From Pirellula staleyi DSM 6068 (GTDB lineage Bacteria; Planctomycetota; Planctomycetia; Pirellulales; Pirellulaceae), in NCBI GenBank assembly GCA_000025185.1, contig CP001848.1, forward strand, positions 540,001 to 572,000: a DNA stretch of 32,000 bases, written 5' to 3'. A program made the position numbers and the translations under genes. The notes below the pieces were generated by a model. It was given only the letters and a program-made list of their open reading frames with translations, ran no database searches and had not been told where the DNA came from. Shown here piece by piece: positions 1-13,608 of this stretch (position 1 is its first letter; every line of letters starts with the position of its first letter).

Positions 1-394
1 CAGCCGTGTGCCAAGCCTGCTCCACAACTAGTGGTTTCCCCGCAGAAGCCAACTCGACCACAAGACGAGTACGTGTCACCGTACCGCCCTGACCATCTGT
101 GTCGAAGCTCCCCTCCTCAGATGACTCGACTCGCCACGACCGCACTTCTGCCCACTTCAGCAGGAATCGATCGCCAGCCCAACACCGCAACTCCGTGATA
201 CCGTGCTCGTCCGCAGCGATTCGAGTCGCGGCTGCGTGAAGCAGCATACCAATAATCAGGCAGAACCCGCCCACGAGTCCGGCGGCTTCCCAACCTGTGG
301 CCCTGGCTTCTGCAGTCACGTCCGGCACGAATTGTAGTTCCGGCGAGGACCATAAACGTCTCTGTATAAATGCGATTGCGGATACCGCAATCAT
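1..394 (-). CDS. Hypothetical membrane protein, 3' end outside the window (cassette ORF)
   Basis: My own translation of the minus frame ending at 394 (ATG = cat 392-394) is open all the way to the window edge, so it is absent from the supplied track. It reads MIAVSAIAFIQRRLW...GLVGGFCLIIGMLLHAA...ITELRCWAGDRFLLKW, with two hydrophobic segments. The start is uncertain; the frame is open up to 451 and has a TTG at 407-409. Confidence 0.4.
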   Translation of the reverse strand, partial: MIAVSAIAFIQRRLWSSPELQFVPDVTAEARATGWEAAGLVGGFCLIIGMLLHAAATRIAADEHGITELRCWAGDRFLLKWAEVRSWRVESSEEGSFDTDGQGGTVTRTRLVVELASAGKPLVVEQAWHTA

Positions 395-453
395 CCCACC
401 CCAAGCCAATCCGGTAAAGAGAAAGAATGGGTTCGTCAGCCGTCTCTCATCTT

Positions 454-513
454 AGATAACACGCACGCTCACCATCCTTCCACTTAACGCTCCGGTTGAC
501 CGCTTTGTTCGCG
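454..513 (-). repeat. attC recombination site (weak candidate)
   Basis: AGATAAC (454-460) ... GTTCGCG (507-513). The right half resembles family A sites (CCGGTTGACCGCTTTGTTCGCGG). The left half is not convincing, so the site may be truncated. Confidence 0.3.
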
Positions 514-969
514 GAATCGTGGAATTGCGGAGGCGAGCCCTGTAATCGCCACGAACTCCTCAAATGAGTCAGCGACCTTGATCCATTGATTGCCAGCTCG
601 GCCCCATTGTAGCCGGAGAACACATGGTGATTCAGCCGATCGTCGATAATCGAGCACGAGTGGCGCGTCCGACCCAAGGCCAAAGTCTCCGATTGCGACC
701 GCCAAGGTATGATCAATTCCCAATGGTGCGGCATGTTCGGAAAGCCAAAACCTATCGCCGCCATTAATGAGCATCTGAATCGTGCATTGCGGCAAAGGAT
801 AGAAGTAAACCGTGCGTTCACCTGGCGCCCAATCGCGAATAGACTCTGGAGCGAGAATTGGATTCAGGTTCTGCGATTCCAGGTTCCCGCGTTCTGAAGG
901 CCAGATTCCGTTAGCCGCCAAACGCAACATGAATTCCGGTACGACTAAGCGGCCATCGATCATGCGCAT
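484..969 (-). CDS. SUKH/SMI1-KNR4-like immunity-type protein
   Basis: ORF track 484..996. I prefer the ATG at 967-969 because the upstream GTG lies inside the attC core. The pattern AVAIGDFGLGSDAPLVLDYR...LRLQWG...WIKVADSFEEFV matches what I recall of SUKH-superfamily immunity proteins. Confidence 0.6.
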   Translation of the reverse strand: MRMIDGRLVVPEFMLRLAANGIWPSERGNLESQNLNPILAPESIRDWAPGERTVYFYPLPQCTIQMLINGGDRFWLSEHAAPLGIDHTLAVAIGDFGLGSDAPLVLDYRRSAESPCVLRLQWGRAGNQWIKVADSFEEFVAITGLASAIPRFREQSGQPER

Positions 970-978
970 TTGTTGCTC

Positions 979-1074
979 CGCGAACGACAATCTCACCCGC
1001 CGCCGGGGCGGAGTGAGCTGTGAACTCCAGAAAGCCTACATGCCCCGCCGGTCAGGGTCAGCGACTGGTTCGGC
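979..1074 (-). repeat. attC recombination site (candidate)
   Basis: CGCGAAC (979-985) ... GTTCGGC (1068-1074). The outer arms CGAACGACAATC / GACTGGTTCG pair imperfectly. The right box overlaps the 3' end of ORF 1058..1531. Confidence 0.45.
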
Positions 1075-1531
1075 GTGCCTTATTGTACTCGGCGAGATCG
1101 ACCGCCATGGGGAAGTACTGCCGGAAGCTCTCGCCGATGGACCTGTCCCGGCACAGTAGCAACGTGCTGGTCGAGTCCCAGCACACGATCTCGACCTCGG
1201 CCAGCGGGTGCTGGATGCGCGGCTCGTCCACCCAAAAGCCCGCGTTGCCGTCCGCGTAGGGCACGACCGCTAGCCGGCACAGGTCGAGCGACACGTCCGG
1301 CGGGAATCCGGACAGGACCGCCCACACGAACTGCATGTCGTGCTCGGCGACCAGCCGCGTCAGCTCCTCGCCCGTCCGCCAGTGCGGCTCGCTGCCAATG
1401 AAGGGCGGCTGCTCATCATCCTCGTGAACGCCGAGCCAGCCGTACTCCAAGTCCGTGATGAGCCAATTGAAGTCCCGCTGACGGTCACCGATGGCTCGGA
1501 ACACGAGCCGCAGGTCGGTGAAGTACGGCAT
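1058..1531 (-). CDS. Hypothetical cassette protein
   Basis: This is the C-terminal 157 aa of track ORF 1058..1918, starting at MPYFTDLRLVF (cat 1529-1531). The upstream part of the track ORF runs through an attC site and was discarded. Confidence 0.6.
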   Translation of the reverse strand: MPYFTDLRLVFRAIGDRQRDFNWLITDLEYGWLGVHEDDEQPPFIGSEPHWRTGEELTRLVAEHDMQFVWAVLSGFPPDVSLDLCRLAVVPYADGNAGFWVDEPRIQHPLAEVEIVCWDSTSTLLLCRDRSIGESFRQYFPMAVDLAEYNKARRTSR

Positions 1532-1578
1532 CTCGCAGCGGCCTTCGAGAAGTGTCTCCACCGCTGAAGCCCTCCCTC

Positions 1579-1669
1579 GCCTAACGACCAAGGTAACCCG
1601 GCGGCGGCCAAGAACCTTTGATTTCAAAACCCACCCGAACCGCCGCTCGGGTTGATCGCCTTGTTCGGA
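1579..1669 (-). repeat. attC recombination site, family A
   Basis: GCCTAAC (1579-1585) ... GTTCGGA (1663-1669). The inner arms are AACCCGGCGGCGG / CCGCCGC-T-CGGGTT, with a single bulged T on the right arm. Confidence 0.7.
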
Positions 1670-1691
1670 AGCTTTTGTCAGCCGCATGTTC

Positions 1692-2144
1692 TTAAAACGG
1701 ACGGCCTTTCTTGAATGGGAACTGGGGCCAAGGAATGAGTGGCTGTCCAATGGACTGCGATTCCCACTGTGCATTGATATATTGTAATGGAGAGTCGGCA
1801 ATTTGACGCCAGGTGACGGACGGAAACATTGTGATTGCCCAATGATCGCAGTCCCATGAAATGTACAGATCAGAGTCAGGAATCCATGACAGAATGTGCT
1901 CTGGAGTGTAGCCGTCACAACTCTCTACCAGATTGACGACTGGAACCGCGTAATAGCCTTCAATACCTTTGTTCGGATCGGACGCAACGTCGTGCAATGA
2001 TTGCCCATCAACCCACACTTCGCCCAATTCGTGTTTGCCAAGCGGCAACAAGATAACTTGGCCACATTCACATTCGTGAACTGCATACTCAAGTTGACGC
2101 TTTGCGCTGAGGAAGTCGGTTAGATCGTCTGGGAGTGTAATCAT
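1692..2144 (-). CDS. SMI1/KNR4 (SUKH-1)-like immunity-type protein
   Basis: ATG start. N-terminal LPDDLTDFL, then GYYAVPVVNLVESCDGYTPEHILSWIP...WDCDHWAI. This is the pattern I associate with SMI1/KNR4 family proteins. Confidence 0.65.
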   Translation of the reverse strand: MITLPDDLTDFLSAKRQLEYAVHECECGQVILLPLGKHELGEVWVDGQSLHDVASDPNKGIEGYYAVPVVNLVESCDGYTPEHILSWIPDSDLYISWDCDHWAITMFPSVTWRQIADSPLQYINAQWESQSIGQPLIPWPQFPFKKGRPF

Positions 2145-2163
2145 GCCCTGTCCTTTGTCCGCT

Positions 2164-2252
2164 TCCGAACATTTGAGTTTAGGGGGGGCCGCACGCCATT
2201 GCCAGGTTCATGCGCAGTCCGTCACGGTGTCCCCTTCAACGAATTGTTAGCC
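2164..2252 (-). repeat. attC recombination site (candidate)
   Basis: TCCGAAC (2164-2170) ... GTTAGCC (2246-2252). The inner arms are GGGGGGCCGCACG / CGT-ca-CGG-tgt-CCCC. The TAA stop of ORF 2247..2636 lies inside the right box. Confidence 0.5.
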
Positions 2253-2636
2253 ACCGTACGCCTCCACCCACCTAGCTTCTCCGTGAGTAGTGACGCTTAG
2301 GCCGGTGGCCGTAATTTGAAGATTCTGGCCTGTTTCAAAATTCAGCTCAGCCACTACCTGACCATATGCATTGAGCGGTACTGGCAGCAAACCAACCAAC
2401 TCGCCTTGAATTGACACACGCCCATCCCAGAGCCGACCCTCAAGACCTGACTGAAGCTGTGTCTGGGTGCCCGAGAACGTGAGTGTGGCGGCCTGCAGGT
2501 AGCCATTCCCAGCAGTTACCCCAGGCTCACCCTCAGACTCGTGAATGTAGGCCTCTGAAAGCTCGACCACGAGGCAACTTTCCTTGACGTGCACAGAAGC
2601 TACGGTTGAGTCGTGGAATTCGAGGGCACGCTTCAT
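2247..2636 (-). CDS. Hypothetical cassette protein
   Basis: 129 aa ORF with an ATG start 4 nt from the next attC core. Begins MKRALEFHDSTVASVHV... Confidence 0.6.
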   Translation of the reverse strand: MKRALEFHDSTVASVHVKESCLVVELSEAYIHESEGEPGVTAGNGYLQAATLTFSGTQTQLQSGLEGRLWDGRVSIQGELVGLLPVPLNAYGQVVAELNFETGQNLQITATGLSVTTHGEARWVEAYGG

Positions 2637-2640
2637 AGGT

Positions 2641-2726
2641 GGCTAACGGATAAAGTTCACCCGCCGCCAGATTCACTCTCGGCCACGCTAGACGTTACGG
2701 CGGTCATGTGCAGCGACTTGTTAGGC
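2641..2726 (-). repeat. attC recombination site (candidate)
   Basis: GGCTAAC (2641-2647) ... GTTAGGC (2720-2726). The inner arms are CACCCGCCGCC / CGGCGG-tcat-GTG, with the extra bases on the right arm. Confidence 0.6.
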
Positions 2727-2730
2727 GGTT

Positions 2731-3105
2731 TTAGCTCAGGACAGTTACTATGCAGTGAACAGGCTTTCCGTGACGTACGATCACATACCCTGCACGCATC
2801 GCGAGCGTCCAGGGATTGATCAAGAACGGCCAAATCATATCCCCTGGCTGTATCGTGTCGCGAATGCGATGCCATTCGGGCGAATCAGGCAACTCTTGAT
2901 CAACATCTTCCGTGCCGAGTGAGCGACCAAACCAGCGGAAACTCGGCGGGGCATGACGCAAGGCTTCCCACCAAAGCTGTTGCTCATCGCCGCGGAGTGT
3001 GACGTACCAAGTTCCACGGCGGACAAGGAACCAATAGAGCCAGCGTAGAACGCCAAGGCGATACCACACGCTTCGCTCGCAACGAACTACTGCCGCTGCC
3101 ACCAC
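2731..3105 (-). CDS. Hypothetical cassette protein
   Basis: Track ORF 2731..3234 trimmed to the GTG at 3103-3105, because the upstream part crosses the attC at 3120-3209. The C-terminus reads ...DMIWPFLINPWTLAMRAGYVIVRHGKPV. Confidence 0.45.
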   Translation of the reverse strand: MVAAAVVRCERSVWYRLGVLRWLYWFLVRRGTWYVTLRGDEQQLWWEALRHAPPSFRWFGRSLGTEDVDQELPDSPEWHRIRDTIQPGDMIWPFLINPWTLAMRAGYVIVRHGKPVHCIVTVLS

Positions 3106-3119
3106 GGATACCTTTGAAC

Positions 3120-3209
3120 GCCTAACGCCAAGGTAACTGGGAGGCGGAGAACGACTTTCCATTTCAAAACCGCTTGGCCCGCGGCTCCGTGTGCAACCGA
3201 TTGTTGTCC
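3120..3209 (-). repeat. attC recombination site, family A
   Basis: GCCTAAC (3120-3126) ... GTTGTCC (3203-3209). It shares GCCTAACG-CCAAGGTAAC...GATTTCAAAAC-like sequence with sites 1579 and 10376. Confidence 0.6.
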
Positions 3210-3237
3210 GGCTTATCACATCAGTACGAAGCATCCG

Positions 3238-3546
3238 TCAAGCTGCTTCATTATAGTCGAGCGTGCAATAAGGCCTACCGTAAGGGATATCTTCTCCATC
3301 GGCATTGAAATTTGCGACGATTATACCACCCTTGATTTCGTCACCTGGCGTCAGTTTCGGTTGAGTCGATAGAAATCCAGGGCCCGTCAGGCGCAGTGTG
3401 CATCCGCCACGCGAGTCACGTGCTATCGCAAATGGCGTACCGGCATCGACATATCGGTCCCATGCATCATCTATCCACGCAACGAATACCAGCGAGTGTT
3501 CGCGGAGTTGCTCAGGAAAGATCGTCGCTTTACAGGAAAATGGCAT
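3238..3546 (-). CDS. Hypothetical cassette protein
   Basis: 102 aa ORF with an ATG start. Confidence 0.55.
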   Translation of the reverse strand: MPFSCKATIFPEQLREHSLVFVAWIDDAWDRYVDAGTPFAIARDSRGGCTLRLTGPGFLSTQPKLTPGDEIKGGIIVANFNADGEDIPYGRPYCTLDYNEAA

Positions 3547-3570
3547 CGGAAACTTGGATGAGCTTGAATC

Positions 3571-3668
3571 GGATAACGAAAAAGATCACCTGCCGAGGTG
3601 GCGGGTGTGACATTGAACTCGAAACGATTCTAGTCGCCTCCACGGTCAGCTGGAGCGGCTTATTCGGC
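3571..3668 (-). repeat. attC recombination site (weak candidate)
   Basis: GGATAAC (3571-3577) ... CTTATTCGGC (3659-3668). The inner arms are CCGAGGTGGCG / CGCCTCCACGG (imperfect). The right box is degenerate. Confidence 0.35.
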
Positions 3669-4267
3669 CGCTGTGCTACAGGGGAGGTCGAACATGCGCA
3701 CCGATCCGTCTTTGCTCTGCACCCGAATTGCCCCTTCCAGGACCCATCGAGCAAACTTAGCGTCGTTCTCGGGAAGGACAAACTCCGCCAGCTTCGGCAT
3801 GGGCAGATTTAGCGGTTCATGGAAATCGTACACCGTCACTTGATGCGGACAGGCCCAATAGCATCCGATGATCGCCACCTTCGTCCGATCCGGTGACGGA
3901 TGGAACTCAGTCCAGATGAACGGGTCATCAGGCGATGAGAACCCAGCCGTAAGCCCATCCGTTAGGTCGACGACCGTTTGTCCCTCTAAGTCCTCCGAGA
4001 AAAGTAGGTAGTCGTGCCGGCCCGAGATACCCAAGCGTAGAAGCAGCGGCTGTCATTCCGCTTGATACTCGCCACCTCATGCTCATCGTCGATGCGACTG
4101 ACAACCACGACGGCGAAGTCCGCGCCGTGCTCGTCTTCGTATTCTGCTATCTCAAGCCGGTATCGACCGCACGGCGACAACTCGGTGACCGGTTGGGCTG
4201 GGGATAGCCGTGCTGATGCCAGCGCACGCACAGTCGCCTCACGGACTTTCTGTATTTCGTTCTTCAC
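3660..4267 (-). pseudogene. Cassette gene split by a frameshift (two overlapping ORFs, 3986..4267 and 3660..4034)
   Basis: The upstream frame ends ...IKRNDSRCFYAW then runs into nonsense. The second frame reads on as GISGRHDYLLFSEDLEGQTVVDL... The two frames overlap by 49 nt, and together they fill one cassette between two attC sites. Confidence 0.5.
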
Positions 4268-4302
4268 CGCTGTTGCACCCGCGCGAGGCTTCCTGTCTTA
4301 AG

Positions 4303-4389
4303 GCCGAACGACTAAATTCACCCGCCACGCCAATCAGTTTGCCACACCTGACCGACGTGGCCGTGGTCGGGTGCAATGGCTTGTTATGC
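4303..4389 (-). repeat. attC recombination site (candidate)
   Basis: GCCGAAC (4303-4309) ... GTTATGC (4383-4389). The inner arms are CACCCGCCACG / CGTGG-T-CGGGTG, with a bulged T on the right arm. The TAA stop of ORF 4384..4782 lies in the right box. Confidence 0.65.
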
Positions 4390-4782
4390 CCAGCCGTAGA
4401 GGACAGTTCGCATCGCAAACATGCCGGCCAGACAGATGCCGTACCAAGCGATCGAATGCATTAGCAACTTCCCAACGCCCCGCCAGCCGCGACTCCACAC
4501 AATGTAGCCAGGCACTACAATCCCGGCCAAGATGAAAAACCAAAACCGAGCAAGGAGCGGAATGGGATGGCTACGCGCAATGGAGTCAGCCACCGCCCAT
4601 ATACACATGACCGTGCACATGGCAAGCGGCACGAGGATTTCGAGCACCGACGCCGCGGGATAATAGGCGCACCGAATCCCCCAAACAACCGCGAGCACGT
4701 AGAAGCAGCCGAGGAGCCACCAGTGCAGTTTCGACCGCTGCGGAGGGCCGGTCTTCGCAGGCGTTTCGGGCAGCGGATTCAA
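4384..4782 (-). CDS. Small multi-pass membrane protein (cassette ORF)
   Basis: 132 aa with a TTG start in the track. There are four hydrophobic stretches (LHWWLLGCFYVLAVVWGI, ILVPLAMCTVMCIWAV, FWFFILAGIVVPGYIVW, IAWYGICLAGMFAM). Confidence 0.6.
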   Translation of the reverse strand: MNPLPETPAKTGPPQRSKLHWWLLGCFYVLAVVWGIRCAYYPAASVLEILVPLAMCTVMCIWAVADSIARSHPIPLLARFWFFILAGIVVPGYIVWSRGWRGVGKLLMHSIAWYGICLAGMFAMRTVLYGWA

Positions 4783-4794
4783 TCAACCTCCGAG

Positions 4795-4886
4795 GCATAA
4801 CGCTTGCAATCACCCGGTTGGCGCGAGTGACGTGGTAAAGTGAACTTGGCACCGCCGCCAACTCGGTGTGCATTGCATTGTTATTG
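4795..4886 (-). repeat. attC recombination site (candidate)
   Basis: GCATAAC (4795-4801) ... GTTATTG (4880-4886). The inner arms are CAATCACCCGGTTGGCG / CGCCAAC-T-CGGTG-tgc-ATTG. Confidence 0.65.
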
Positions 4887-4898
4887 CCCTACTCGACT

Positions 4899-5294
4899 CT
4901 ACGTTTCCATCGGTGGATGTAAGCCGAAATCACCATCTTTCCACCCGTGAAACCCCATGCACATCCCATCGCCGTCAGCGAGATTGATTTCCGCTACAGC
5001 TTCACCAGTGTCCAGATCAGTGAGCTGGACAGAAACAGAAAGGTTTACGCGATGTTCTTCGTTTTCAAGGGATCCAGAAACACCGTCGATGATCATCATG
5101 ATTCCATAGACTGCATCATCAATTGCTTTCAATGCCGCTGAGCGCGCATCGTCACTGAGTCCAGCCTCGAGTTGTTCGATTGCATAGTTTCGCACATCTT
5201 CAAAGATGATAAGCCCGGCTGCATTTTGAATCCAGAGATCGCGTTTTCGTTCATCGCTCGGAGGTCGCGTCAATCTTCTTTGGTGTGTTGCCAT
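4899..5294 (-). CDS. Hypothetical cassette protein
   Basis: 131 aa ORF with an ATG start. Confidence 0.6.
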   Translation of the reverse strand: MATHQRRLTRPPSDERKRDLWIQNAAGLIIFEDVRNYAIEQLEAGLSDDARSAALKAIDDAVYGIMMIIDGVSGSLENEEHRVNLSVSVQLTDLDTGEAVAEINLADGDGMCMGFHGWKDGDFGLHPPMET

Positions 5295-5359
5295 AGGGGA
5301 TTTGGTTCAATGCTATCAGAGTGATTGCCTCACGGTTGATCTCGGGACTCTGTCTTGGG

Positions 5360-5454
5360 CAATAACGATAATGTTAAGCTGCCCCCGCCCACGTTGGACG
5401 AGCACCACGCAAGCCACTTGCAGGGCGGGAGTCAGCTTGAACGCCTTGTTCGGC
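5360..5454 (-). repeat. attC recombination site (candidate)
   Basis: CAATAAC (5360-5366) ... GTTCGGC (5448-5454). The inner arms are AAGCTGCCCCCGCCC / GGGCGGGAGTCAGCTT. Confidence 0.65.
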
Positions 5455-5460
5455 CTGTCT

Positions 5461-5832
5461 TTACTGCCACAGAGCCTTCGATCGGCTAATAATGCCGACG
5501 ACTCGCTCGTCGATTCCGCGGCCAATCCGCCACACCACCCGTCCGTGCTCTAGCCAGAGAACAGCACCCCAGCCTTCGGGGACGCCAACGCCATCAAACG
5601 TGACGAGCAGCCCAAGCGACGACAGCCACCCCTGACCGACATCGGATTCCTCGTCTACAGCGAACGCCTCGACCTGCAGCCCGATCTCGGCAAGACGCGC
5701 CACCGCCTCGCGGAAGTTTGCGCGAGCCGTCCGCTCCGGACCAGACCACGGGACGGTGAGGAACACCATCGCTCGAGGTGCCGCGTTGATGGCGGCGATC
5801 ATCGCTTCGTCGGTACCCTCCTGCACGATCAT
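5461..5832 (-). CDS. Thioredoxin-fold-like protein lacking the CxxC motif (second gene of a two-gene cassette)
   Basis: Track ORF 5461..5910 trimmed to MIVQEG (cat 5830-5832). AMVFLTVPWSGPERTARANF resembles a Trx active-site region, with WSGPE in place of WCGPC. Its ATG overlaps the upstream TGA as ATGA. Confidence 0.5.
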   Translation of the reverse strand: MIVQEGTDEAMIAAINAAPRAMVFLTVPWSGPERTARANFREAVARLAEIGLQVEAFAVDEESDVGQGWLSSLGLLVTFDGVGVPEGWGAVLWLEHGRVVWRIGRGIDERVVGIISRSKALWQ

Positions 5833-6158
5833 CCGCCCCCCCACTTCCGCCGATCTACAGCAGCCACATGTCTGGCGAGTTCGAGTAGCAAGCCATCCCC
5901 CAGCTCGCATTCGGCGAGAAGATAGTTTCCTGACCAGTTGTCCCAGCCGGCAGCTAATGACACACCCTCCCTGACGTACGAAGGCATTATGCCCTCGTCA
6001 CAACCGATGACCGGCTGAGACTCCGTCAACAGTGTCCGGCGTGTAAAGCCCTGGGCAGTCAGCCAGTCAACCGCGAGAAACCACTGCGGAGAGTCGTACG
6101 CCTCGAACTCCAGCAGGTTGCGGCCGTTAGCAGCTTTCAGAAGCAGCGGTGTTTCCAT
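5829..6158 (-). CDS. Hypothetical protein (first gene of a two-gene cassette)
   Basis: Track ORF 5829..6227 trimmed to METPLLLK (cat 6156-6158), 5 nt from the attC core at 6164. Confidence 0.5.
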   Translation of the reverse strand: METPLLLKAANGRNLLEFEAYDSPQWFLAVDWLTAQGFTRRTLLTESQPVIGCDEGIMPSYVREGVSLAAGWDNWSGNYLLAECELGDGLLLELARHVAAVDRRKWGGG

Positions 6159-6163
6159 CAGTG

Positions 6164-6242
6164 GCCTAACGACTGCGTTCACTTGAGGGCCGGCTGCAAG
6201 GAACGCGAGGTCTCGAAAAACCGTCATGCCGGCCCGTTAAGT
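6164..6242 (-). repeat. attC recombination site (candidate)
   Basis: GCCTAAC (6164-6170) ... GTTAAGT (6236-6242). The inner arms are CTTGAGGGCCGGC / GCCGGCCCGTTAAG. The right box lies in the last codons of ORF 6224..6718. Confidence 0.65.
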
Positions 6243-6718
6243 GCAACGCTTTGCTCGGGCTCCGCTGTCCTTTCCCAAACGCGAAAATCGAAATCGTAAG
6301 GGCAGCCCAAGATGATGTACCGCCCGTCCGAAGAGAAGGTCGCAGCCGCCCAATCGCCGGAGAAGTTCTCGAACGTGGACGACCAAACTTCCTTTCCATC
6401 CTTGAACACCGATACCGTCTCGCCTTCTGGGTTCAGAACTAACTGTTCGACATTCGGGGCAGAGAGAATCGGGCGGCCGGGGTACAAACCAATGATGTCC
6501 CACTCCATTCCTTGATAACGGCACACCCCGCTGTCGGGGTCGAACAGGTCATACTCGGCGTACTCTGGGTCTGTCTCGACGGTGATGGGATGACCGAGTC
6601 GGACCAGGTGTATGCCCTCATAGGAAACGACCAGCACTGTGTCATCCTTCGGGATTGAGAACCCGATCATCCGCTCGCAGATATCGGGAACCGACAGTCT
6701 TCGCCACGCCGCCGCCAA
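6224..6718 (-). CDS. Hypothetical beta-rich cassette protein
   Basis: 164 aa from a TTG start; an alternative ATG sits at 6668-6670 (MIGFSIPKDD). Reads ...SGDWAAATFSSDGRYIILGCPYDFDFRVWE. Confidence 0.6.
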   Translation of the reverse strand: MAAAWRRLSVPDICERMIGFSIPKDDTVLVVSYEGIHLVRLGHPITVETDPEYAEYDLFDPDSGVCRYQGMEWDIIGLYPGRPILSAPNVEQLVLNPEGETVSVFKDGKEVWSSTFENFSGDWAAATFSSDGRYIILGCPYDFDFRVWERTAEPEQSVALNGPA

Positions 6719-6733
6719 TGTGCGCCCCCTGTT

Positions 6734-6823
6734 GCCGAACTTTCAAAATCACCCGGCGGGCGCGGTTGATTGCCTATTGTGAAAATGCCCGATCGCCCGC
6801 TCGAGTGCATTGTGTTGTTAGGT
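6734..6823 (-). repeat. attC recombination site (candidate)
   Basis: GCCGAAC (6734-6740) ... GTTAGGT (6817-6823). The inner arms are CACCCGGCGGGCG / CGCCCGC-T-CGAGTG. The TAA stop of ORF 6818..7249 lies in the right box. Confidence 0.65.
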
Positions 6824-7249
6824 GTCCCCGCTGGAAGCAAAAGCCTCGATTCCGCGTGTGCAGGATCGTAGCGTTTGAACAAGTGGGGCATACAGCGATG
6901 CCGCACCGTCGCGCGCTGAAAGGAAATCGTACCAGGCGAACAACCTCATCACTTCGTCCGCATCTTCCACATATATCTCGTTCAGGCCGTCTGATTCGTC
7001 CCGGAGAAAGCGGGTAAGCATGAACGGCAAGATAGTCAGCCGCTCTGCATCCGACGCTTCGAATGGCTTCAGGGAATCATCGGCATACACGGTAACATTT
7101 CGGCGTATACCCGAACTCCAATCCAGAGTCATAGCGCCGTTGACGTATTCGACAAAGGGAGGGAGAAGCCTCTGGATTTCACGCCAACGGCCGACGCTAA
7201 CATCCCCGAGCTCGTGCTCGTAACTTTTGTAGAACAGGATATGTCCCAC
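6818..7249 (-). CDS. Hypothetical cassette protein
   Basis: 143 aa with a GTG start 9 nt from the attC core. Confidence 0.55.
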   Translation of the reverse strand: MGHILFYKSYEHELGDVSVGRWREIQRLLPPFVEYVNGAMTLDWSSGIRRNVTVYADDSLKPFEASDAERLTILPFMLTRFLRDESDGLNEIYVEDADEVMRLFAWYDFLSARDGAASLYAPLVQTLRSCTRGIEAFASSGDT

Positions 7250-7258
7250 TGTACCCCC

Positions 7259-7358
7259 GCTTAACGCCCAAGCTCAGCGGACCGGCCCGCCGAGAGAAAG
7301 CCTCATGATACCGGAAACCTCGGCGGCGGGCCGGGTCCGCTGCAGCGCGAGGTTAGGA
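7259..7358 (-). repeat. attC recombination site (candidate)
   Basis: GCTTAAC (7259-7265) ... GTTAGGA (7352-7358). The long inner arms are CAGCGGACCGGCCCGCCGAG / CTCGGC-ggc-GGGCCGG-g-TCCGCTG, with the extra bases on the right arm. Confidence 0.7.
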
Positions 7359-7359
7359 G

Positions 7360-7734
7360 TCAGACCAGCTCGATCTCGTAACCTAACGCCGCGGCACTCC
7401 GACGCAAGAGCCCCTCGGTCGCCCGCTCTTGCTCGCCGGAATGGTAGCCGATGAAGAGGCCCTCGCCGGGCATCGCCACGAAGCTCAAGGCTCGCTCTCC
7501 CGACGGCTCGTCAGCGACCGTGACCCAGACCGCCTCCGGCTGTGCCTTGCGGTGGGCCTCGACGATCTCGTCGGGGGCGCGCATGCGGAGGAACTGAGCA
7601 ATCATGTCGCCGACATGATCAGCCCCGGCGTCCCGGTCGGTATCGACGATGGCGAACTCCTCGCGGAGGCGACGGACGACCTCACTCGGGGTGAGATAGC
7701 TCCGGCCGGACTTCGGCGAGAGACGATGGGCCAT
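7360..7734 (-). CDS. Hypothetical cassette protein
   Basis: Track ORF 7360..7755 trimmed to MAHRLSPKSG (cat 7732-7734), because the upstream residues enter the attC. Confidence 0.55.
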   Translation of the reverse strand: MAHRLSPKSGRSYLTPSEVVRRLREEFAIVDTDRDAGADHVGDMIAQFLRMRAPDEIVEAHRKAQPEAVWVTVADEPSGERALSFVAMPGEGLFIGYHSGEQERATEGLLRRSAAALGYEIELV

Positions 7735-7746
7735 TAGGGTAGAGCC

Positions 7747-7806
7747 GCCTAACACCGGAATTAAGCCGACCCGCGAAGCGGGTTCGGCTTGAATGAATTG
7801 TTAGGC
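7747..7806 (-). repeat. attC recombination site (60 bp, classical 59-base-element size)
   Basis: GCCTAAC (7747-7753) ... GTTAGGC (7800-7806), a perfect consensus pair. The inner arms are AAGCCGACCCGC / GCGGG-T-TCGGCTT, with a single bulged T. Confidence 0.75.
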
Positions 7807-7839
7807 CCCGACCGCGTACAGCCGGAGCCAGATACTTGC

Positions 7840-8052
7840 CTAGCTGCCACTTGGGTCGGCTCTGAACACTCGACGACGATACTCGTGCAGCCCAGCAAGC
7901 AACACATCATCCTCGGCACTGAAGATTTGAGGGCAGGGATCGCTAGGCAGAATAGCGTTTACAACGATCTGACCGAGGCGCAGGTCCGGCTCGCGCTCCC
8001 AGATCTCTCGCAGCACTTCAAGGATCTGCTCAATTCGTTGGGGATCGCGCAT
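7840..8052 (-). CDS. Small hypothetical cassette protein
   Basis: Track ORF 7840..8172 trimmed to MRDPQRIEQILEVLREIWEREPDLRLGQIVVN (cat 8050-8052). The discarded N-terminus is translated attC sequence. Confidence 0.5.
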   Translation of the reverse strand: MRDPQRIEQILEVLREIWEREPDLRLGQIVVNAILPSDPCPQIFSAEDDVLLAGLHEYRRRVFRADPSGS

Positions 8053-8057
8053 ACGGG

Positions 8058-8144
8058 GCCTAACGTTCTGCATCACCGGCCGCCGCTGGTGATGAACCAT
8101 TGTGAAACCAAAGCCGAACGGCGGTCCGGTGCATGCGGTTGTTC
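8058..8144 (-). repeat. attC recombination site, family B
   Basis: GCCTAAC (8058-8064) ... GTTGTTC (8138-8144). The inner arms are CTGCATCACCGGCCGCCG / CGGCGG-T-CCGGTG-C-ATGC. Confidence 0.7.
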
Positions 8145-8152
8145 TTCCGAGT

Positions 8153-8584
8153 TCACGATTCTCGGCGAACAACCGGTAAGTTACTAGCGCAGGATGATTC
8201 AGTGGGAAAACGATTCAGGTATTCCCCAAATTCGACCATTGCGGCTTGAAGTGCCTTGATGACTTTTAATCGCCTAGATTCCTTCAAGAGGTGTCCCGGC
8301 AACCGTTCAAACCACCGTTGACTAACGTCGCGTTCAAATCCATGTTCGGTGGTGTCGAGACGTGAGCTCGGACGTAACTTCTGCTGGTAGTACTCCAAAA
8401 CCGGCTTGATTTGGGCAACGCTACCAAATCGGAAAGTAAAGCCGCAGACCTCGACGCAATATGTCCACACCGGGATGAGTGCTGGATTTGGCGATACGTC
8501 ATGTGCGGGTAATCCGACATACGCATGAAGATCGAAGTGTTGCGACCAGTGACCCTTTCGCTCTTCTTTCCAAATCCGAGCCAT
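8153..8584 (-). CDS. Hypothetical cassette protein
   Basis: 143 aa ORF with an ATG start. Confidence 0.6.
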   Translation of the reverse strand: MARIWKEERKGHWSQHFDLHAYVGLPAHDVSPNPALIPVWTYCVEVCGFTFRFGSVAQIKPVLEYYQQKLRPSSRLDTTEHGFERDVSQRWFERLPGHLLKESRRLKVIKALQAAMVEFGEYLNRFPTESSCASNLPVVRRES

Positions 8585-8622
8585 TGAAACGCTTTATCTG
8601 GAAAACGCCGAAAATCAGCCGC

Positions 8623-8688
8623 TGCCAACGACTGATGCTTTAATTGAATCCGGCCTATACGGCAGTCTGCTGCATTTGCTCGTTAGGC
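8623..8688 (-). repeat. attC recombination site (weak candidate)
   Basis: TGCCAAC (8623-8629) ... GTTAGGC (8682-8688). The inner arms are CAGCCGCTGCC / GGCAGTCTGCTG (imperfect). The TAA stop of ORF 8683..9090 lies in the right box. Confidence 0.4.
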
Positions 8689-9090
8689 GGCGCCCGCTGC
8701 AGCCTGCCCCGTACAAATCGCCTCGAGAATGATACTCGACAACCCCGTCTTCAAAACACTATCCATTGGTCGCAATTCTTCGGCTGTGCTCTCCCAGCGG
8801 GAAGCTTGCCCAATCTGAAAGATTTCGGCCCGCGCCCATACTCGCAGCGCGACAACGTTCGATTCGTCAAGTGAGAGTACGACCCACACCTTCTCGACTT
8901 CACTACCTCGCCATTGCCTGATCTCGAACCGGTGACTCCACGAAAGAGAATCATTCTTATAGTGGTACGTGCGCGCTGACTCGTCAACGATCACGATTCC
9001 ACGTGCAATCAAGATAGCCTGTTCTCGACGCAACAACTCGTCCAGCAGGTGTTCTGCTTCACGAAACTGATGCTCTACTGCGGTGATCAT
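8683..9090 (-). CDS. Hypothetical cassette protein
   Basis: 135 aa ORF with an ATG start 7 nt from the attC core. Confidence 0.6.
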   Translation of the reverse strand: MITAVEHQFREAEHLLDELLRREQAILIARGIVIVDESARTYHYKNDSLSWSHRFEIRQWRGSEVEKVWVVLSLDESNVVALRVWARAEIFQIGQASRWESTAEELRPMDSVLKTGLSSIILEAICTGQAAAGAA

Positions 9091-9097
9091 TGCTGTC

Positions 9098-9192
9098 GCC
9101 TAACGGATCAATATTCACTGGACGGGCCAATGACCAGCTTTCGAATCACAGGGACCGTTGCGGCCCCGGTTCAGTGCAGTGTTTGGTTAGGC
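9098..9192 (-). repeat. attC recombination site (candidate)
   Basis: GCCTAAC (9098-9104) ... GTTAGGC (9186-9192). The inner arms are CACTGGACGGGCC / GGCCCCGGTTCAGTG. Confidence 0.6.
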
Positions 9193-9210
9193 AGCAGCCG
9201 GGTCGCCGCA

Positions 9211-9648
9211 TCACCAGTTAAACCAAACGACGAAGCGAACTCGGTCCGCGCCGAACCGTTCTTCGAGAGTACGAGCGAACGCAAACGATAGCGTCCATTG
9301 GCTATCCTCGGGCGGCTCCTTCAGTGCGTAACCGCGAATCTCATCCCACAAAGCCCATGTGTAACCGCCCATTTCGCCGGTGCCGAACTTCGCTTCATGT
9401 GCTTCGATCTCGTCGAGAGCTCGACGGACTTGCACGGAAGGGTTCGCAGGCACCCCACGGGCAGCGGCGATTGCGGCGACCGACTTTTCGCCGCTCACGC
9501 ACCCTTTGGACATGCCAAAGATCTGTTCGGTGTCCTCGTCCGCGACGTCGACGATCGCACCGAGATTGACTACGCCAGACCATGCGTGCTCGTCTGCCGT
9601 CTCCGGCAACCGTGCGACCTCGATCCATCCTTCAATCCAGAAGGGCAT
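9211..9648 (-). CDS. Hypothetical cassette protein
   Basis: Track ORF 9211..9777 trimmed to MPFWIEGWIEV (cat 9646-9648), 8 nt from the attC core. Confidence 0.55.
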   Translation of the reverse strand: MPFWIEGWIEVARLPETADEHAWSGVVNLGAIVDVADEDTEQIFGMSKGCVSGEKSVAAIAAARGVPANPSVQVRRALDEIEAHEAKFGTGEMGGYTWALWDEIRGYALKEPPEDSQWTLSFAFARTLEERFGADRVRFVVWFNW

Positions 9649-9656
9649 CTGCTGCT

Positions 9657-9745
9657 GCCTAACTTTCTGCCTCACCGGACGCCGCTGGTGATGAGCCATT
9701 GAAAAAACCAACGCCGAACGGCGGTCCGGTGCATGCGATTGTTTG
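9657..9745 (-). repeat. attC recombination site, family B
   Basis: GCCTAAC (9657-9663) ... GATTGTTTGC (about 9737-9746). It is near-identical in its central part to sites 8058 and 11781 (CACCGG-CGCCGCTGGTGATG ... CCGAACGGCGGTCCGGTGCATGCG). Confidence 0.65.
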
Positions 9746-10353
9746 CTACTCCCAATAGTCTTCCCATTTATCCGCAAACGCTTCCTTCAGACGTTGCATG
9801 TAGGCATTGGTCTTGATCTTTGCCATCCAGACTTTCCCGTTAGGCACACCCTTGCAAACCACGCCTTCAGCCACGCCGAATCGACCTTCACGGACATCGT
9901 CCGCGAATTTGCCGGTTAGCTTACCGCGATAGACCGTCCGTGCAATCGGGAGATTGACCAGATCCTGTACGAATTGGGCTGGCGAAAGAAAACCGTCCGC
10001 GGTTTGCACGTCAATGATGACCAGCCGTTTCGTGTCAGTCGAAAGGTGCTTTCCTGCAAAAGAGTGGTCACCGAGGAACTCCGTAAAGACAATCAGCTCG
10101 TTTGCGCCGTAACAATCAAGACCGGACAAAACTGAAGACAGTTGTTCCGCAAAGGCACCGAGTTAAATGCTGCGATTCCTTGATCATCAAGGTCAAACCG
10201 ATCTTGACGTGTGCCGAATGCATACCAACCGAGCGTAGCATCCCAGACCCAATGGATGTTGGTGCCATCGTATTTCTCGAATGCAATGCAAGTGCCAAGC
10301 GGTGCATCACCACTGTCGGGCATCTTCGGATAGACGAGATTAGTACGAGCCAC
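9746..10353 (-). pseudogene. ATP-dependent RNA ligase (nucleotidyltransferase-domain type), interrupted by a frameshift
   Basis: The upstream ORF (10093..10353) carries motif I, EKYDGTN. The downstream ORF (9746..10129) carries FTEFLG (motif III), EGVVCKG (motif IV) and MAKIKT (motif V). The second frame is closed by a TAA just upstream of ...LGAFAEQLSSVLSGLD, which places the shift at about 10160-10175. Confidence 0.7.
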
Positions 10354-10375
10354 AGAAGAGGTACTTAATCTTGGT

Positions 10376-10460
10376 AGCGAACGGCCAAGGCAACCCGGCG
10401 GCGGCCAAGAACCTTTGATTTCCCCCCGACCCGCCTCTCGGGTTGACCGCCCTGTTTGCG
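10376..10460 (-). repeat. attC recombination site, family A
   Basis: AGCGAAC (10376-10382) ... GTTTGCG (10454-10460). The stretch CCAAGGCAACCCGGCGGCGGCCAAGAACCTTTGATTTC is almost identical to site 1579. Confidence 0.65.
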
Positions 10461-10463
10461 CCG

Positions 10464-11183
10464 CTACTTAGGCGCAGGCCAGCGTTTCCCACCATTAAAG
10501 CAGATCTCCTTCAGTTGAGGCAGTGCGTCCAACAAGGCGTCGTATTCTGACGGATAATAGTCATCAGAGAGCCAGAGATATTCCAATTTCTTCAACTGCT
10601 TGAGAGGCAACAAATTACGCCGTTCTTTCGGAAGGCGCACAAGCAGAACAGCAAACTGAAGTTCCTTGAGTGCAGAAAGTGGATTCAATGACTCGACCTG
10701 ATAGCGGGCGCTAATCTGTCCATCGATGTAGATTTCTCGAAGTTCGGGTAGCGTCGAAAGCGGCTCCAGCGAAGTGACTCCCATGGCTTCGCTGACACAC
10801 AGGGAATGCAGCCAATCCATACCTCGCACGAATTCCAGAGACTCCTGTTGCCGATTCCACCCCAACACCAGCGTTCGGAGATTTTTCAGGCAAGCCAACG
10901 AAGGTATGTCTTTGCATTTTGGCAGCGTTAATTTGACATGCTCGAGATTCGGCATACTCGCAAACGCTGGAAGCCATTCTTCATGCAGTGGAGAATGAAC
11001 TCGACGAATCTCTCTAAAGCGTGGAAGGTCGTCGATGTGTTTCGTCTTGCGGTTGAGCCATACAGACCGAACGTCGGACGGCAAGTCTGCGACGTCATCG
11101 CATAAGACCATACCTGGAGGCATTCCCAAGTAGGGAGCTCGATGCGTTGCTGCGAACTCTTTGATGTAATTTCGGGTTGGCAT
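10464..11183 (-). CDS. Leucine-rich repeat protein
   Basis: 239 aa with an ATG start. It has a repeated LxxLxxLxL periodicity (LPNLEHVKLTL, LKNLRTLVLGWN, LPELREIYIDG, LKELQFAVLL, LKKLEYLWLSD). Confidence 0.7.
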   Translation of the reverse strand: MPTRNYIKEFAATHRAPYLGMPPGMVLCDDVADLPSDVRSVWLNRKTKHIDDLPRFREIRRVHSPLHEEWLPAFASMPNLEHVKLTLPKCKDIPSLACLKNLRTLVLGWNRQQESLEFVRGMDWLHSLCVSEAMGVTSLEPLSTLPELREIYIDGQISARYQVESLNPLSALKELQFAVLLVRLPKERRNLLPLKQLKKLEYLWLSDDYYPSEYDALLDALPQLKEICFNGGKRWPAPK

Positions 11184-11194
11184 GCAGCTTCTAC

Positions 11195-11285
11195 GGCGAA
11201 CGGTAGCGGTAACCGGGGCGCCGCCACAAAACTAGGATTTCAAATCCCGCGTTATCGGCGGCTCCGGTTCACCACTTTGTTCTGT
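11195..11285 (-). repeat. attC recombination site, family A-like
   Basis: GGCGAAC (11195-11201) ... GTTCTGT (11279-11285), with central GGATTTCAAATCCC. ORF 11232..11753 reads 54 nt into this site before its stop. Confidence 0.55.
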
Positions 11286-11753
11286 CGCGTTTAGTAACGG
11301 TTTGCATTTAACTTTACATTCAGCGGTCGTCGCCGTTGGATTATAGCCTGGAATTCGGCCAACCAGTTCAGGAAATGCCGAAGTCAAGGCCGCCCACCCT
11401 GCGGTGCGACGATGCATTTCATCGGATGCCAGCAGTGATTGGACGAATGATAGTTCGCATTCAATGTCGGAGCCACGTCGGTTGAGTTCAAGCAGTAGTA
11501 TGTTGGGAGTCAGGCAGGCGGGGTCATGGAGTTCGCCGACCAATTGTTCATCGGTCATGCGTTCAAATCGTCGTGAGATCCACCTAAGGCAGACGATGAG
11601 AGGCATCTGTCCAATCGTCGCACCCAGTACGAATCCGATTGGGATGCCGACAACACAACCAAGTATGCCAAAAGCGTTCCATCCGGTTGATCCGAGAACG
11701 ACCGCGCCACCCACAGCGGCAATCAATCGAATTAGGTCAAACAGGGTAAACAT
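11232..11753 (-). CDS. Membrane-anchored hypothetical cassette protein
   Basis: 173 aa with an ATG start and two N-terminal hydrophobic helices (LIRLIAAVGGAVVLGSTGW, ILGCVVGIPIGFVLGATIG). Confidence 0.6.
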   Translation of the reverse strand: MFTLFDLIRLIAAVGGAVVLGSTGWNAFGILGCVVGIPIGFVLGATIGQMPLIVCLRWISRRFERMTDEQLVGELHDPACLTPNILLLELNRRGSDIECELSFVQSLLASDEMHRRTAGWAALTSAFPELVGRIPGYNPTATTAECKVKCKPLLNATEQSGEPEPPITRDLKS

Positions 11754-11780
11754 GTCATTGACGTGTAAGCGGTCTTAGCG

Positions 11781-11868
11781 ACAGAACGTTCTGCATCGCC
11801 GGCCGCCGCTGGTGATGTGCAATAGTGAAACCAAAGCCGGGACGGCGGTCCGGTGCGTGCGGTTGTTT
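11781..11868 (-). repeat. attC recombination site, family B
   Basis: ACAGAAC (11781-11787) ... GTTGTTT (11862-11868). The central sequence matches sites 8058 and 9657. Confidence 0.6.
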
Positions 11869-11974
11869 GCTGATGAAGTGCAGTTGGACGTTGCCAAATC
11901 GCCATCAACCAAAACAAGCGAAAGACTGCGATGACCATGAGCGATCATCGATTGGGAAAACCGCCGATCGGCGA

Positions 11975-12475
11975 CTACGGTCTATCGGTTGGTTCGTCGA
12001 CATTTTGATTCGAGTCACTTCGCAGTTTTGGAATAAGGTACCACAGAATATAGCCAGAGTCGATCAATTCACCGGCATCACACGAAGCCTTGATTGTCGA
12101 ACGGAGTTCCACAGAGTCAGCAAAGCCATATTTGGTTTGTAGTACATGGCGGGCAAATCTCTCCATGCGATAGAAATCGAGCCCATCAATTTGTCCATGT
12201 TCGCCAAAATCGAAGTCAACGCTGAATTCCGGTGTCTTGACAGCGCATCCAAAGCCGTGAATGAAGTACTGACCGCCATTCGCCAACTGTCCCATCTGCG
12301 GAACATCGTAGGCGACCCAATCAATCGTCGATTGTGGTCGAGGTATGCCTATCGCCTCTAAAGATTCGACCGCATATCGAACCGCGTCCTGATAGTCATG
12401 GATCAATCGAATCAACCGAGCGTCAATTGCAACTGCTCCCGTCGAAGAACAACTTGTATACAGAACTCTACACAT
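11975..12475 (-). CDS. Hypothetical protein (last recognisable cassette ORF before the recombinase remnant)
   Basis: 166 aa with an ATG start. QYFIHGFGCAVKTPEFSVDFDFGEHGQIDGLDFYRMERFA resembles a DUF-type family I recall seeing among immunity-like genes. This is unverified. Confidence 0.6.
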   Translation of the reverse strand: MCRVLYTSCSSTGAVAIDARLIRLIHDYQDAVRYAVESLEAIGIPRPQSTIDWVAYDVPQMGQLANGGQYFIHGFGCAVKTPEFSVDFDFGEHGQIDGLDFYRMERFARHVLQTKYGFADSVELRSTIKASCDAGELIDSGYILWYLIPKLRSDSNQNVDEPTDRP

Positions 12476-13053
12476 TCCTCTGAGGGCGTATTCTGCTTAT
12501 CTCGGGGGGTAGTGTCAACGAAAGTCAAGAAAGGTGCGATAGGCTCCAACTTATCCCGACTTCTGCAAAATCTGGATGATCTAGAATCGTCTTAATTCCT
12601 CCGTCCCAATACCGCGAACTATGGCTTAGCTGCCCACATTTACAGCAGCAGGACTTCGACGCAGGTCGCTGATCTGCACCGACCGGAAAGCCGATTCAAT
12701 ACCCTCTAACTGGTAGTGCTCGTCTTGATCGACGTTTTTCGTCCGGCCGTCAGCACCACGTAGTACAGCTTGTCGGTTCCCAGACGGCTCACCGGTCTCT
12801 GCCTGATCTTGCTCACCACCACTCGATCACCCGGTCGACAGCGATGCACTTCCCCCCAGAACTTCCTTGACCATGCTCGTCGCCTCCTAGAGTTTGCTTT
12901 CTATCTGTCTGAGTAACCGCTTCTTTTCAGCGGACTGGCGTGCTTCTCGTTTCGCTTCCCGCTCCTCGGACTTTTCAATCATCTGCTGCAGTTTCAGCAG
13001 CACGGTTCGCTTGCCATGGTCATGTGCCTGCAGCTCGAGCAATCTTTGTCGTG

Positions 13054-13383
13054 ACGCATCGAGTCTCCAAGGTTCTGACGCTAATTGGAAAAGCAGCTGG
13101 CATCGAGGTGCAAGCCGCTGTCGGATCCCCTGCGGAGCGGCCCCAGAAGACACGAGGAGCTCCGACCAAACAGGAGACACGCAGCAGCAGTTACCATCCC
13201 CCGAAGTATGCCAGTGCCCACGATCTCCGCCGCACGTGTGCTGACCGGCTGGAGGAGGCAGGAGTTGACCCGCTGGTGATTGCCCGGATCATGCGGCACA
13301 AGAGCTACGAGACCACGCGTCGATTCTATGCCACGGGGAATGTGCAGCGGGATGCTCGGAGGCTGCACGAGGTACTGACCGGA
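13054..13383 (+). pseudogene. Tyrosine recombinase, C-terminal catalytic fragment only (possible decayed integron integrase)
   Basis: In track ORF 12940..13509, LIGKAAGIEV...SAHDLRRTCADRLEEAGVDPLVIARIMRHKSYETTRRFY carries the HxxR box and the H...Y box of tyrosine recombinases. No N-terminal or core-binding domain is visible upstream in any frame. Confidence 0.6.
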
Positions 13384-13574: not shown

Positions 13575-13608
13575 ACACTAAACTTTTACAAATCAACAAC
13601 TTACATTC

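Follow-up and report, generated by a model that had tools for sequence, protein, structure and literature searches.

A candidate orphan Rhs-immunity cassette in an ORFan-rich integron array of Pirellula staleyi

The first 12.7 kb of a 32,000-nucleotide stretch of the Pirellula staleyi DSM 6068 genome (contig CP001848.1, positions 540,001 to 572,000 of the forward strand) is an integron cassette array. This whole stretch is referred to below as the window, and positions are given in its own coordinates. The array is probably a sedentary chromosomal one similar to a CALIN (cluster of attC sites lacking integron integrases), with a heterogeneous, ORFan-rich cargo that contains an orphan immunity cassette encoding a SUKH-1-like protein (484-969). 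An initial annotation, made from the sequence alone, had taken the cargo for a library of immunity genes of the kind directed against polymorphic toxins. Its observations are partly confirmed and its interpretation is partly supported, in that immunity genes appear among the cargo. A dedicated library is not supported, because one of the approximately 22 cassettes matches a Pfam immunity family and another encodes an RNA ligase.

The cassette array and its attC sites

The premise of the initial annotation that this cargo consists of integron cassettes is sound. Every substantial open reading frame (ORF) in 1-12.5 kb lies on the minus strand, and the ORFs are separated by elements of 60-100 nt that start with RYYYAAC and end with GTTRRRY (consensus GCCTAAC...GTTAGGC). 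The stop codon of a cassette is often found within the first attC box, for example GGC-TAA-C at 2247-2252. Nineteen attC sites were picked by eye and aligned, and their R''/L''-L'/R' structure was drawn by hand and then checked by pair counts. This structure was used instead of one from a MAFFT alignment, for which RNAalifold gave no structure; scans by simple regular expression and energy were too noisy. In the hand-drawn structure, 71.6% of cells pair over the 19 sites, versus 30-47% when the partner is slid by 1-3 columns, and the covariation score is 0.292 versus 0.144 in shuffles, none of 500 of which reaches 0.292.

A covariance model built from this alignment recovers all the 19 training sites on the minus strand, where each site scores far above the plus strand. 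It also detects two further sites, one outside the training set (3119-3209, 31.8 bits), the other weak and truncated (453-513). With these, the array has 20 complete sites plus a truncated one, which all occupy the minus strand from 453 to 11871 (Table 1). No site was found by the model in the rest of the window (12-32 kb). Since the model was made from sites of the window, only site 3119-3209 and the matches in other loci described below are independent of its training. On its left side the array continues beyond the window, and the right (upstream) boundary is at approximately 12.5-12.7 kb. No integron integrase gene (intI) is present in the 32-kb window, a point missed in the initial annotation. 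A CALIN is recognised by two or more attC sites that follow one another closely on a single strand, fold as imperfect hairpins with R''(RYYYAAC)...R'(GTTRRRY) boxes and have no intI closer than about 4 kb; this is the arrangement found here, and the array is CALIN-like as far as the window shows.

Near-identical attC subfamilies (80-95% identity) are found within the array, comprising 8057-8147, 9656-9747 and 11780-11871, and also 1578-1669 and 10375-10460. This suggests that cassettes were drawn from common source pools or that their attC sites were recently homogenised. The 484-969 ORF runs into the truncated attC, and thus its last residues, REQSGQPER, are encoded by attC. The same peptide is encoded in frame by homologous attC sites elsewhere too, and the 11232-11753 ORF likewise terminates within its own attC. 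A two-gene cassette made of 3238-3546 and 2731-3234 was considered and rejected, since attC 3119-3209 intervenes between them.

The SUKH-1-like cassette family and its Rhs-linked homologues

At least two of the cassettes had been called SUKH in the initial annotation. The call is partly confirmed for 484-969, with a sub-threshold match of its own, SMI1_KNR4 matches across its family and Rhs-linked homologues, and fails for 1692-2144. The 484-969 protein (484-996 in the Pfam census) matches SMI1_KNR4 with E = 0.0021 and 19.1 bits (gathering score, 25.4) over profile positions 74-124 only. This match recurs in 7 of 10 close homologues. A HMMER search gathered 685 representatives of the family, and among the distant ones 37 of 148 scanned match SMI1_KNR4 (best E = 1.8e-5), with no rival family. 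SUKH-like motifs are conserved in the family alignment, LP..L..L...G.WP in the N-terminal part and IGDFGLGSD.P..LDYR....P.V.RL.W......W....SF.EF in the C-terminal part. The protein is described here as SUKH-1-like, and not as a demonstrated SUKH member, because a confident AlphaFold2 (AF2) model retrieved no solved or viral structure. Family profiles of 484-969 and 1692-2144 likewise found no match among PDB sequences.

Homologues of this protein are encoded directly after Rhs proteins. In a metagenome-assembled genome of Lysobacterales (L040), the family gene begins 9 nt past the stop codon of an ORF with RHS_repeat (E = 3.3e-13). This Rhs ORF has the core end RARYYDMATGRFNRLDP...DPSGY, with a ...RFNRLDP...DPSGY motif, and beyond it a C-terminal domain of some 235 aa; the downstream protein shows 36% identity to the 484-969 protein over near-full length. 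Two contigs from soil, L076 and L077, encode an Rhs-like protein of 1,500 aa that ends in ...DPSGL, and a family member follows at once. The C-terminal domain of the L076/L077 Rhs proteins is 33% identical to that of L040 over the last 110 residues (E = 2e-18), and a conserved motif is common to the domain in L040 (1519-2226) and L076 (about 4190-4956). This shared domain has no Pfam match and may be an undescribed toxin domain. Among 118 ORFs neighbouring the family, no other recurrent toxin family was found. A conserved pairing of this kind, of a C-terminal toxin domain with a small gene just downstream, is what typically marks a toxin and its immunity partner. Because homologues of the 484-969 protein are paired with Rhs and no toxin lies near the copy in the window, this cassette is a credible orphan gene of the Rhs-immunity type.

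The family was located in 43 GTDB species-representative genomes and 80 metagenome contigs, in which attC flanking was scored with the window-derived model. The family gene is directly flanked by attC sites in at least 13 of the 43 genomes, and attC-flanked members occur in Planctomycetota, Kuenenia, Abditibacteriaceae, Verrucomicrobiota, Armatimonadota, Alcaligenaceae and Ideonella lacteola. Sites were also found on 18 of the 80 metagenome contigs, right beside the gene in about 12, and all 41 metagenome attC matches share the strand of the family gene. The best homologues point to Planctomycetota. The locus of the betaproteobacterium I. lacteola (L034, NZ_JBBUTG010000041.1), where a SUKH-like family cassette is present, is a dense array with 23 or more short attC sites (61 nt) on a single strand within 10 kb.

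From the example of RhsI and SUKH immunity proteins, we infer that members of this family bind and neutralise the paired Rhs C-terminal domain. Cassette 484-969, if expressed, would protect its host from neighbours delivering that Rhs toxin; the cassette is presumably expressed, and the cognate toxin is presumably absent from the rest of the genome. It would be one of approximately 22 promoterless cassettes, each with a terminal attC and with no visible integron integrase, and the remaining ones would have unrelated or unassigned roles, including a putatively decayed RNA ligase. The family itself circulates widely across phyla as attC cassettes.

The remaining cargo and the flanking genes

Every cassette ORF was searched against Pfam at E <= 0.1. 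A match to an immunity family was obtained for one of the approximately 22 cassettes, which is the sub-threshold SMI1_KNR4 match of 484-969. NCBIfam gave LRR (leucine-rich repeat) models and one weak unrelated match (PaaB, E = 3e-4), and no immunity family. No defence system of PADLOC-DB was matched by 24 window proteins, and no toxin-antitoxin or defence family of Pfam was found in the window cassettes. As the initial annotation had stated, toxin, secretion, Rhs and contact-dependent inhibition (CDI) domains are absent from the window ORFs scanned. About 14 cassettes have no match in Pfam, PDB sequences or plasmids. Single-sequence PDB searches with five other cassettes gave nothing but a weak WD40-like match, and tblastn against plasmids with the 1692-2144 protein and seven other cassette proteins gave no homologues. 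The ORFs are arranged in tandem, co-oriented and closely spaced, with no toxin gene interrupting them.

All ORFs listed in the initial annotation exist. Its small membrane proteins (4384-4782 and 11232-11753), LRR protein and DUF-like protein of 166 aa, which is DUF6896, were recovered as described (Table 1). Of its two beta-rich proteins, 6224-6718 has weak WD40-blade similarity, and the gene for 3660-4267 carries a frameshift in the window but not in an independent metagenome contig. The thioredoxin fold proposed for 5461-5832 has no match in Pfam or PDB. The Pfam searches of the cassette proteins yielded the SUKH-like, LRR, DUF6896, RNA ligase and weak DUF1040 matches and no other SUKH or Imm family. 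The LRR, DUF6896 and membrane features are compatible with immunity, but none is diagnostic. Size and general features, which had been taken as signs of immunity, do not discriminate either. ORFans make up 64% of integron cassette ORFs in a metagenome survey and up to 82-85% in other studies (PMC7370490). Because 64-85% of unknown function is normal for integron cargo, being small and uncharacterised is not evidence for immunity.

The metagenome contig (L009, 2.7 kb) is near-identical to the window, with identical cassettes in identical order. Its version of the 3660-4267 gene (66-671) is an intact ORF, called at 212 aa, with 203 aa aligned at 96.6% identity; the other genes are 98-100% identical. 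The RNA ligase cassette (9746-10353), which the initial annotation had overlooked, is split by a frameshift near 10130, owing either to pseudogenisation or to an error in the sequence.

Table 1. Cassettes, attC sites and recombinase remnant in the window (attC scores: R1, bits)
Feature	Position	Strand	Basis or remarks
Cassette array, ~22 cassettes	1-12700	-	attC covariance-model matches confined here, minus strand only; ORFs all minus
Divergent SUKH-1-like protein, candidate orphan Rhs-immunity gene	484-969	-	Pfam; Rhs-linked homologues; attC-flanked homologues
157-aa protein, no assigned function	1058-1531	-	Priestia plasmid homologues adjoin SMI1/KNR4 gene (hint only)
150-aa member of widespread unannotated family	1692-2144	-	Family, model, gene contexts
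129-aa ORFan	2247-2636	-	No Pfam, PDB or plasmid match
ORFan, start codon uncertain; downstream of attC 3119-3209	2731-3100	-	Pfam, attC model
102-aa ORFan	3238-3546	-	Pfam
~203-aa gene, frameshifted here, intact in L009	3660-4267	-	ORF and L009 comparison
Small membrane protein, 3-4 hydrophobic segments	4384-4782	-	Hydropathy
131-aa ORFan	4899-5294	-	Pfam, plasmid search
Two-gene cassette (5829-6152 and 5461-5832), no attC between, no family match for either	5461-6152	-	Pfam, attC model, PDB
164-aa beta-rich protein, weak WD40-blade similarity	6224-6718	-	PDB sequence search
143-aa ORFan	6818-7249	-	Pfam, plasmid search
~125-aa ORFan	7360-7737	-	Pfam
70-aa protein, weak DUF1040 match	7840-8049	-	Pfam E = 1.3e-4, below cut-off
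143-aa ORFan	8153-8584	-	Pfam, plasmid search
135-aa ORFan	8683-9090	-	Pfam, plasmid search
145-aa ORFan	9211-9648	-	Pfam, plasmid search
Frameshifted RNA ligase cassette; motifs KYDGTN, EGVVCK, KIK	9746-10353	-	PF09414 E = 1.3e-6, two frames merged
LRR protein, 239 aa	10464-11183	-	LRR_4 E = 1.1e-10
Protein with 2 N-terminal transmembrane segments; C-terminus inside attC	11232-11753	-	Hydropathy
DUF6896 protein, most upstream cassette seen	11975-12475	-	Pfam E = 1.7e-26
Truncated attC	453-513	-	17.1, E = 0.17; 484-969 ORF runs into it
attC	978-1074	-	44.9
attC	1578-1669	-	70.7
attC	2163-2252	-	47.4; R'' box holds TAA stop of 2247-2636
attC	2640-2726	-	52.8
attC, outside training set	3119-3209	-	31.8, E = 4e-5; divides apparent two-gene cassette
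attC	3570-3668	-	56.5
attC	4302-4389	-	65.2
attC	4794-4886	-	50.7
attC	5359-5454	-	53.9
attC	6163-6259	-	36.7
attC	6733-6823	-	60.6
attC	7258-7358	-	51.4
Short attC, 61 nt	7746-7806	-	48.5
attC, repeat family D2; one subfamily with 9656-9747 and 11780-11871	8057-8147	-	77.1
attC	8599-8688	-	54.3
attC	9097-9192	-	40.3
attC	9656-9747	-	70.8
attC	10375-10460	-	55.4
attC	11194-11285	-	58.1
attC	11780-11871	-	68.6
Tyrosine recombinase C-terminal remnant, not IntI-like	12940-13509	+	Phage_integrase E = 1e-7, last 45 residues only; abuts tRNA-Arg

The family of 1692-2144 consists of proteins of about 150 aa with conserved CECG and D-x-DH motifs; over 356 homologues are spread across Planctomycetota, Verrucomicrobiota and other phyla. 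None of 16 members matches Pfam SUKH, and no precomputed SUKH or immunity domain is found among the 120 homologues listed; the lone Pfam entry among these 120 is PF04255, on a longer fusion protein (P0060, 237 aa). Comparison with the 484-969 family by hhalign gives a probability of 1%, and an AF2 model with a pLDDT (predicted local distance difference test) of 91.4 has no Foldseek match in PDB. In eight distinct contexts, homologues have housekeeping or cassette-like neighbours, never a toxin. The assignment of 1692-2144 to SUKH thus finds no support in Pfam, profile-profile comparison, fold search or gene context; from the model, the protein may represent a new fold or family.

No toxin association was found in the plasmid contexts of DUF6896 homologues, and a text search of the literature gave no mention of DUF6896. 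On Caballeronia plasmid pSBC2-1 (L060, 220-7713), DUF6896 forms the N-terminal part of a 330-aa protein, which adjoins three consecutive tyrosine-recombinase genes and a gene for a 523-aa protein with a YVDD reverse-transcriptase-like motif.

Upstream of the array, the region 11871-12900 was searched and contains no attC and no recognisable attI, with one GTTAGAG near 12690. The recombinase remnant at 12940-13509 has the Tn1549 integrase as its closest solved relative (PDB, E = 0.0035), not VchIntIA, and a spacer of about 30 aa lies ahead of its HDLRRT, whereas IntI has no such spacer. On this best match and spacing, a decayed IntI was rejected as the origin of the remnant. No N-terminal part of the recombinase survives in any frame. 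The remaining sequence, HDLRRT...RHKSYETTRRFY, overlaps the 5' end of tRNA-Arg with its final codons, and it is probably the relic of an earlier island. A 9.7-kb integrative island resides in this tRNA-Arg(CCT), at 13500-23276: the complete tRNA gene is at 13500-13573, and a perfect 53-nt copy of its 3' part at 23224-23276 is the other att site. The island carries genes for a 497-aa tyrosine integrase (13733-15226), which is part of the island and not of the cassette array, helix-turn-helix proteins (15440-16099 and 16564-17115), a 419-aa protein (17214-18473) and a serine resolvase (18831-19427). Past the island, 23420-30518 looks like a sulfur-handling cluster, encoding a 527-aa WXXGXW-repeat protein (minus strand), a rhodanese/YgaP-like protein, a metallo-beta-lactamase-rhodanese fusion and a pyridine nucleotide-disulphide oxidoreductase.

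Alternative readings and relation to known systems

Several observations weigh against an array with a single identified immunity cassette, and they pull in two directions. Some would favour a generic array without interbacterial immunity, in which the SUKH-like protein is a protein-binding or cell-wall-related domain and its adjacency to Rhs is incidental; a role in cell-wall biogenesis is among the annotations given to SMI1/KNR4 proteins. The Pfam match of 484-969 is below the gathering score and confined to the C-terminal half, its AF2 model (pLDDT 86.5) has no Foldseek match in PDB, SUKH structures included, or in BFVD, and only two independent toxin-adjacent cases occur among 123 loci, which leaves about 120 that are not beside toxins. 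This explanation is nevertheless rather unlikely, as two independent Rhs proteins with a homologous C-terminal domain each have a family member within about 10 nt downstream or overlapping. Since the same domain family takes part in both arrangements, recurrence by chance is improbable.

The other observations point towards more immunity than has been recognised, up to a dedicated polyimmunity library in which most cassettes encode divergent immunity proteins against polymorphic toxins, stockpiled on the integron platform. Apart from 484-969 as one credible case, the approximately 14 unclassified cassettes leave room for a larger hidden immunity fraction, and heterogeneous polyimmunity loci (PMC3482391), whose genes are likewise small, co-oriented and free of interrupting toxins, count LRR and two-transmembrane proteins among their kinds of immunity protein. 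A bona fide SUKH-4 cassette with flanking attC sites occurs in one related array (L002) and an Imm35 gene in another (L007). In addition, homologues of the 1058-1531 protein (40% identity) lie on Priestia plasmids between an annotated SMI1/KNR4 gene and a small gene of possibly WapI-like type. On P. aryabhattai plasmid p-LAD1 (L141, 5098-8379), the SMI1/KNR4 gene, the 1058-1531 homologue, a small membrane ORF and a gene for a 143-aa protein that may resemble the WapI immunity family lie on the same strand and may form a polyimmunity-type locus in a firmicute. However, a Listeria homologue of 1058-1531 lies between rpsI and cas9, and homologues of 1692-2144 and DUF6896 are never beside toxins in nine distinct contexts. 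The failure of the SUKH call on 1692-2144, the single sub-threshold SUKH/Imm match in the whole cargo, the RNA ligase cassette and the fact that small ORFan cargo is the integron norm also argue against a library, which is improbable on this balance. Least of all is it to be expected that the cassettes are mainly anti-phage defence or toxin-antitoxin modules. Related arrays do hold Abi_C and toxin-antitoxin genes (HigB, MazE/PemK), along with acetyltransferases and transposases, and one two-gene cassette (5461-6152) occurs in the window, but neither the PADLOC nor the Pfam searches of the window cassettes found any such system. An ORFan-rich, CALIN-like array with an orphan SUKH-1-like immunity cassette therefore stands as the preferred reading.

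The evidence on 484-969, together with the SUKH-4 and Imm35 genes of related arrays, indicates that genes for interbacterial immunity can be part of integron cargo. The majority of integron cassettes are without a known function, and selective pressures beyond antibiotics, lately phage, are under debate. The 484-969 family, paired with Rhs elsewhere and widespread as a cassette, is a concrete and testable case of interbacterial immunity as integron cargo, and it supplies a candidate new Rhs C-terminal domain with its immunity partner for experiment. Integrons as reservoirs of interbacterial immunity thus become an idea that is directly testable. A far-reaching version, which we regard as speculative and doubtful, is that the canonical integron pools of different phyla together serve as a bank of orphan immunity genes directed against polymorphic toxins, those of Rhs included. 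Immunity families would become attC cassettes at toxin-immunity loci and in this form reach Planctomycetota, Verrucomicrobiota, Abditibacteriota, Betaproteobacteria and others. An integrase supplied in trans could then bring them to a position where they are expressed, and many unclassifiable cassettes would be immunity proteins too divergent for profiles. The present array also advises caution: small ORFan cassettes should not be called immunity genes without evidence from family or context. In an open-access text search, which is not proof of novelty, no account of polymorphic-toxin immunity genes in the form of canonical attC cassettes turned up; cassettes named 'Microcin immunity protein MccF' already appear in a list from 2009.

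In structure, the array does not differ from sedentary chromosomal integrons and CALINs (Cury et al., 2016; PMC4889954). It shares with them many co-oriented promoterless cassettes, attC sites with R''/L''-L'/R' pairing, homogeneous attC subfamilies, ORFan-rich cargo, some pseudogenised cassettes and the lack of intI nearby, and it is notable among them for one credible Rhs-type immunity cassette. The 484-969 family resembles the Rhs-CT/RhsI pairs and SUKH proteins (Zhang et al., 2011; PMC3113570) in that its homologues stand right after an Rhs protein with a DPxGL-type core end and a variable C-terminal domain, and in its motifs LP..L..L...G and GDFG.GSD...LDY...V..L.W....W....SF.EF. It differs in that the window copy has no adjacent toxin, that the family is below the SUKH-1 threshold of Pfam, that its AF2 model retrieved no solved SUKH structure and that the paired Rhs C-terminal domain has no Pfam family.

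The concept of an immunity-gene array is already known in two forms. Heterogeneous polyimmunity loci (Zhang et al., 2012; PMC3482391) also consist of close-set small genes in tandem on the same strand without interrupting toxins, include SUKH and LRR members, vary between strains and sometimes adjoin XerC/D-type recombinases. One such locus of Bacteroides encodes 19 immunity proteins of 13 superfamilies, and no extended one has been reported from Planctomycetes (PMC3482391). These loci are dominated by recognisable immunity families, whereas one of about 22 cassettes is recognisable here. The other form, the recombinase-associated acquired interbacterial defence cluster (rAID-1) of Bacteroidales (Ross et al., 2019; 10.1101/471110), is integron-like and has been shown experimentally to protect against toxins of the type VI secretion system. 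It shares with the window array small co-oriented genes including orphan immunity genes, repetitive intergenic sequence and signs of gene acquisition by a tyrosine recombinase. Unlike this array, with its decayed recombinase remnant, canonical attC sites and one credible immunity gene, rAID-1 has a conserved XerD-family recombinase at its head and rAID-specific repeats, and the majority of its genes have known immunity genes as homologues. The window array is classed with neither form because it is not dominated by recognisable immunity genes, and it is also without their recombinase. The 484-969 family nevertheless offers a parallel to rAID-1 of gut Bacteroidales, one that makes use of canonical attC sites and extends over several phyla.

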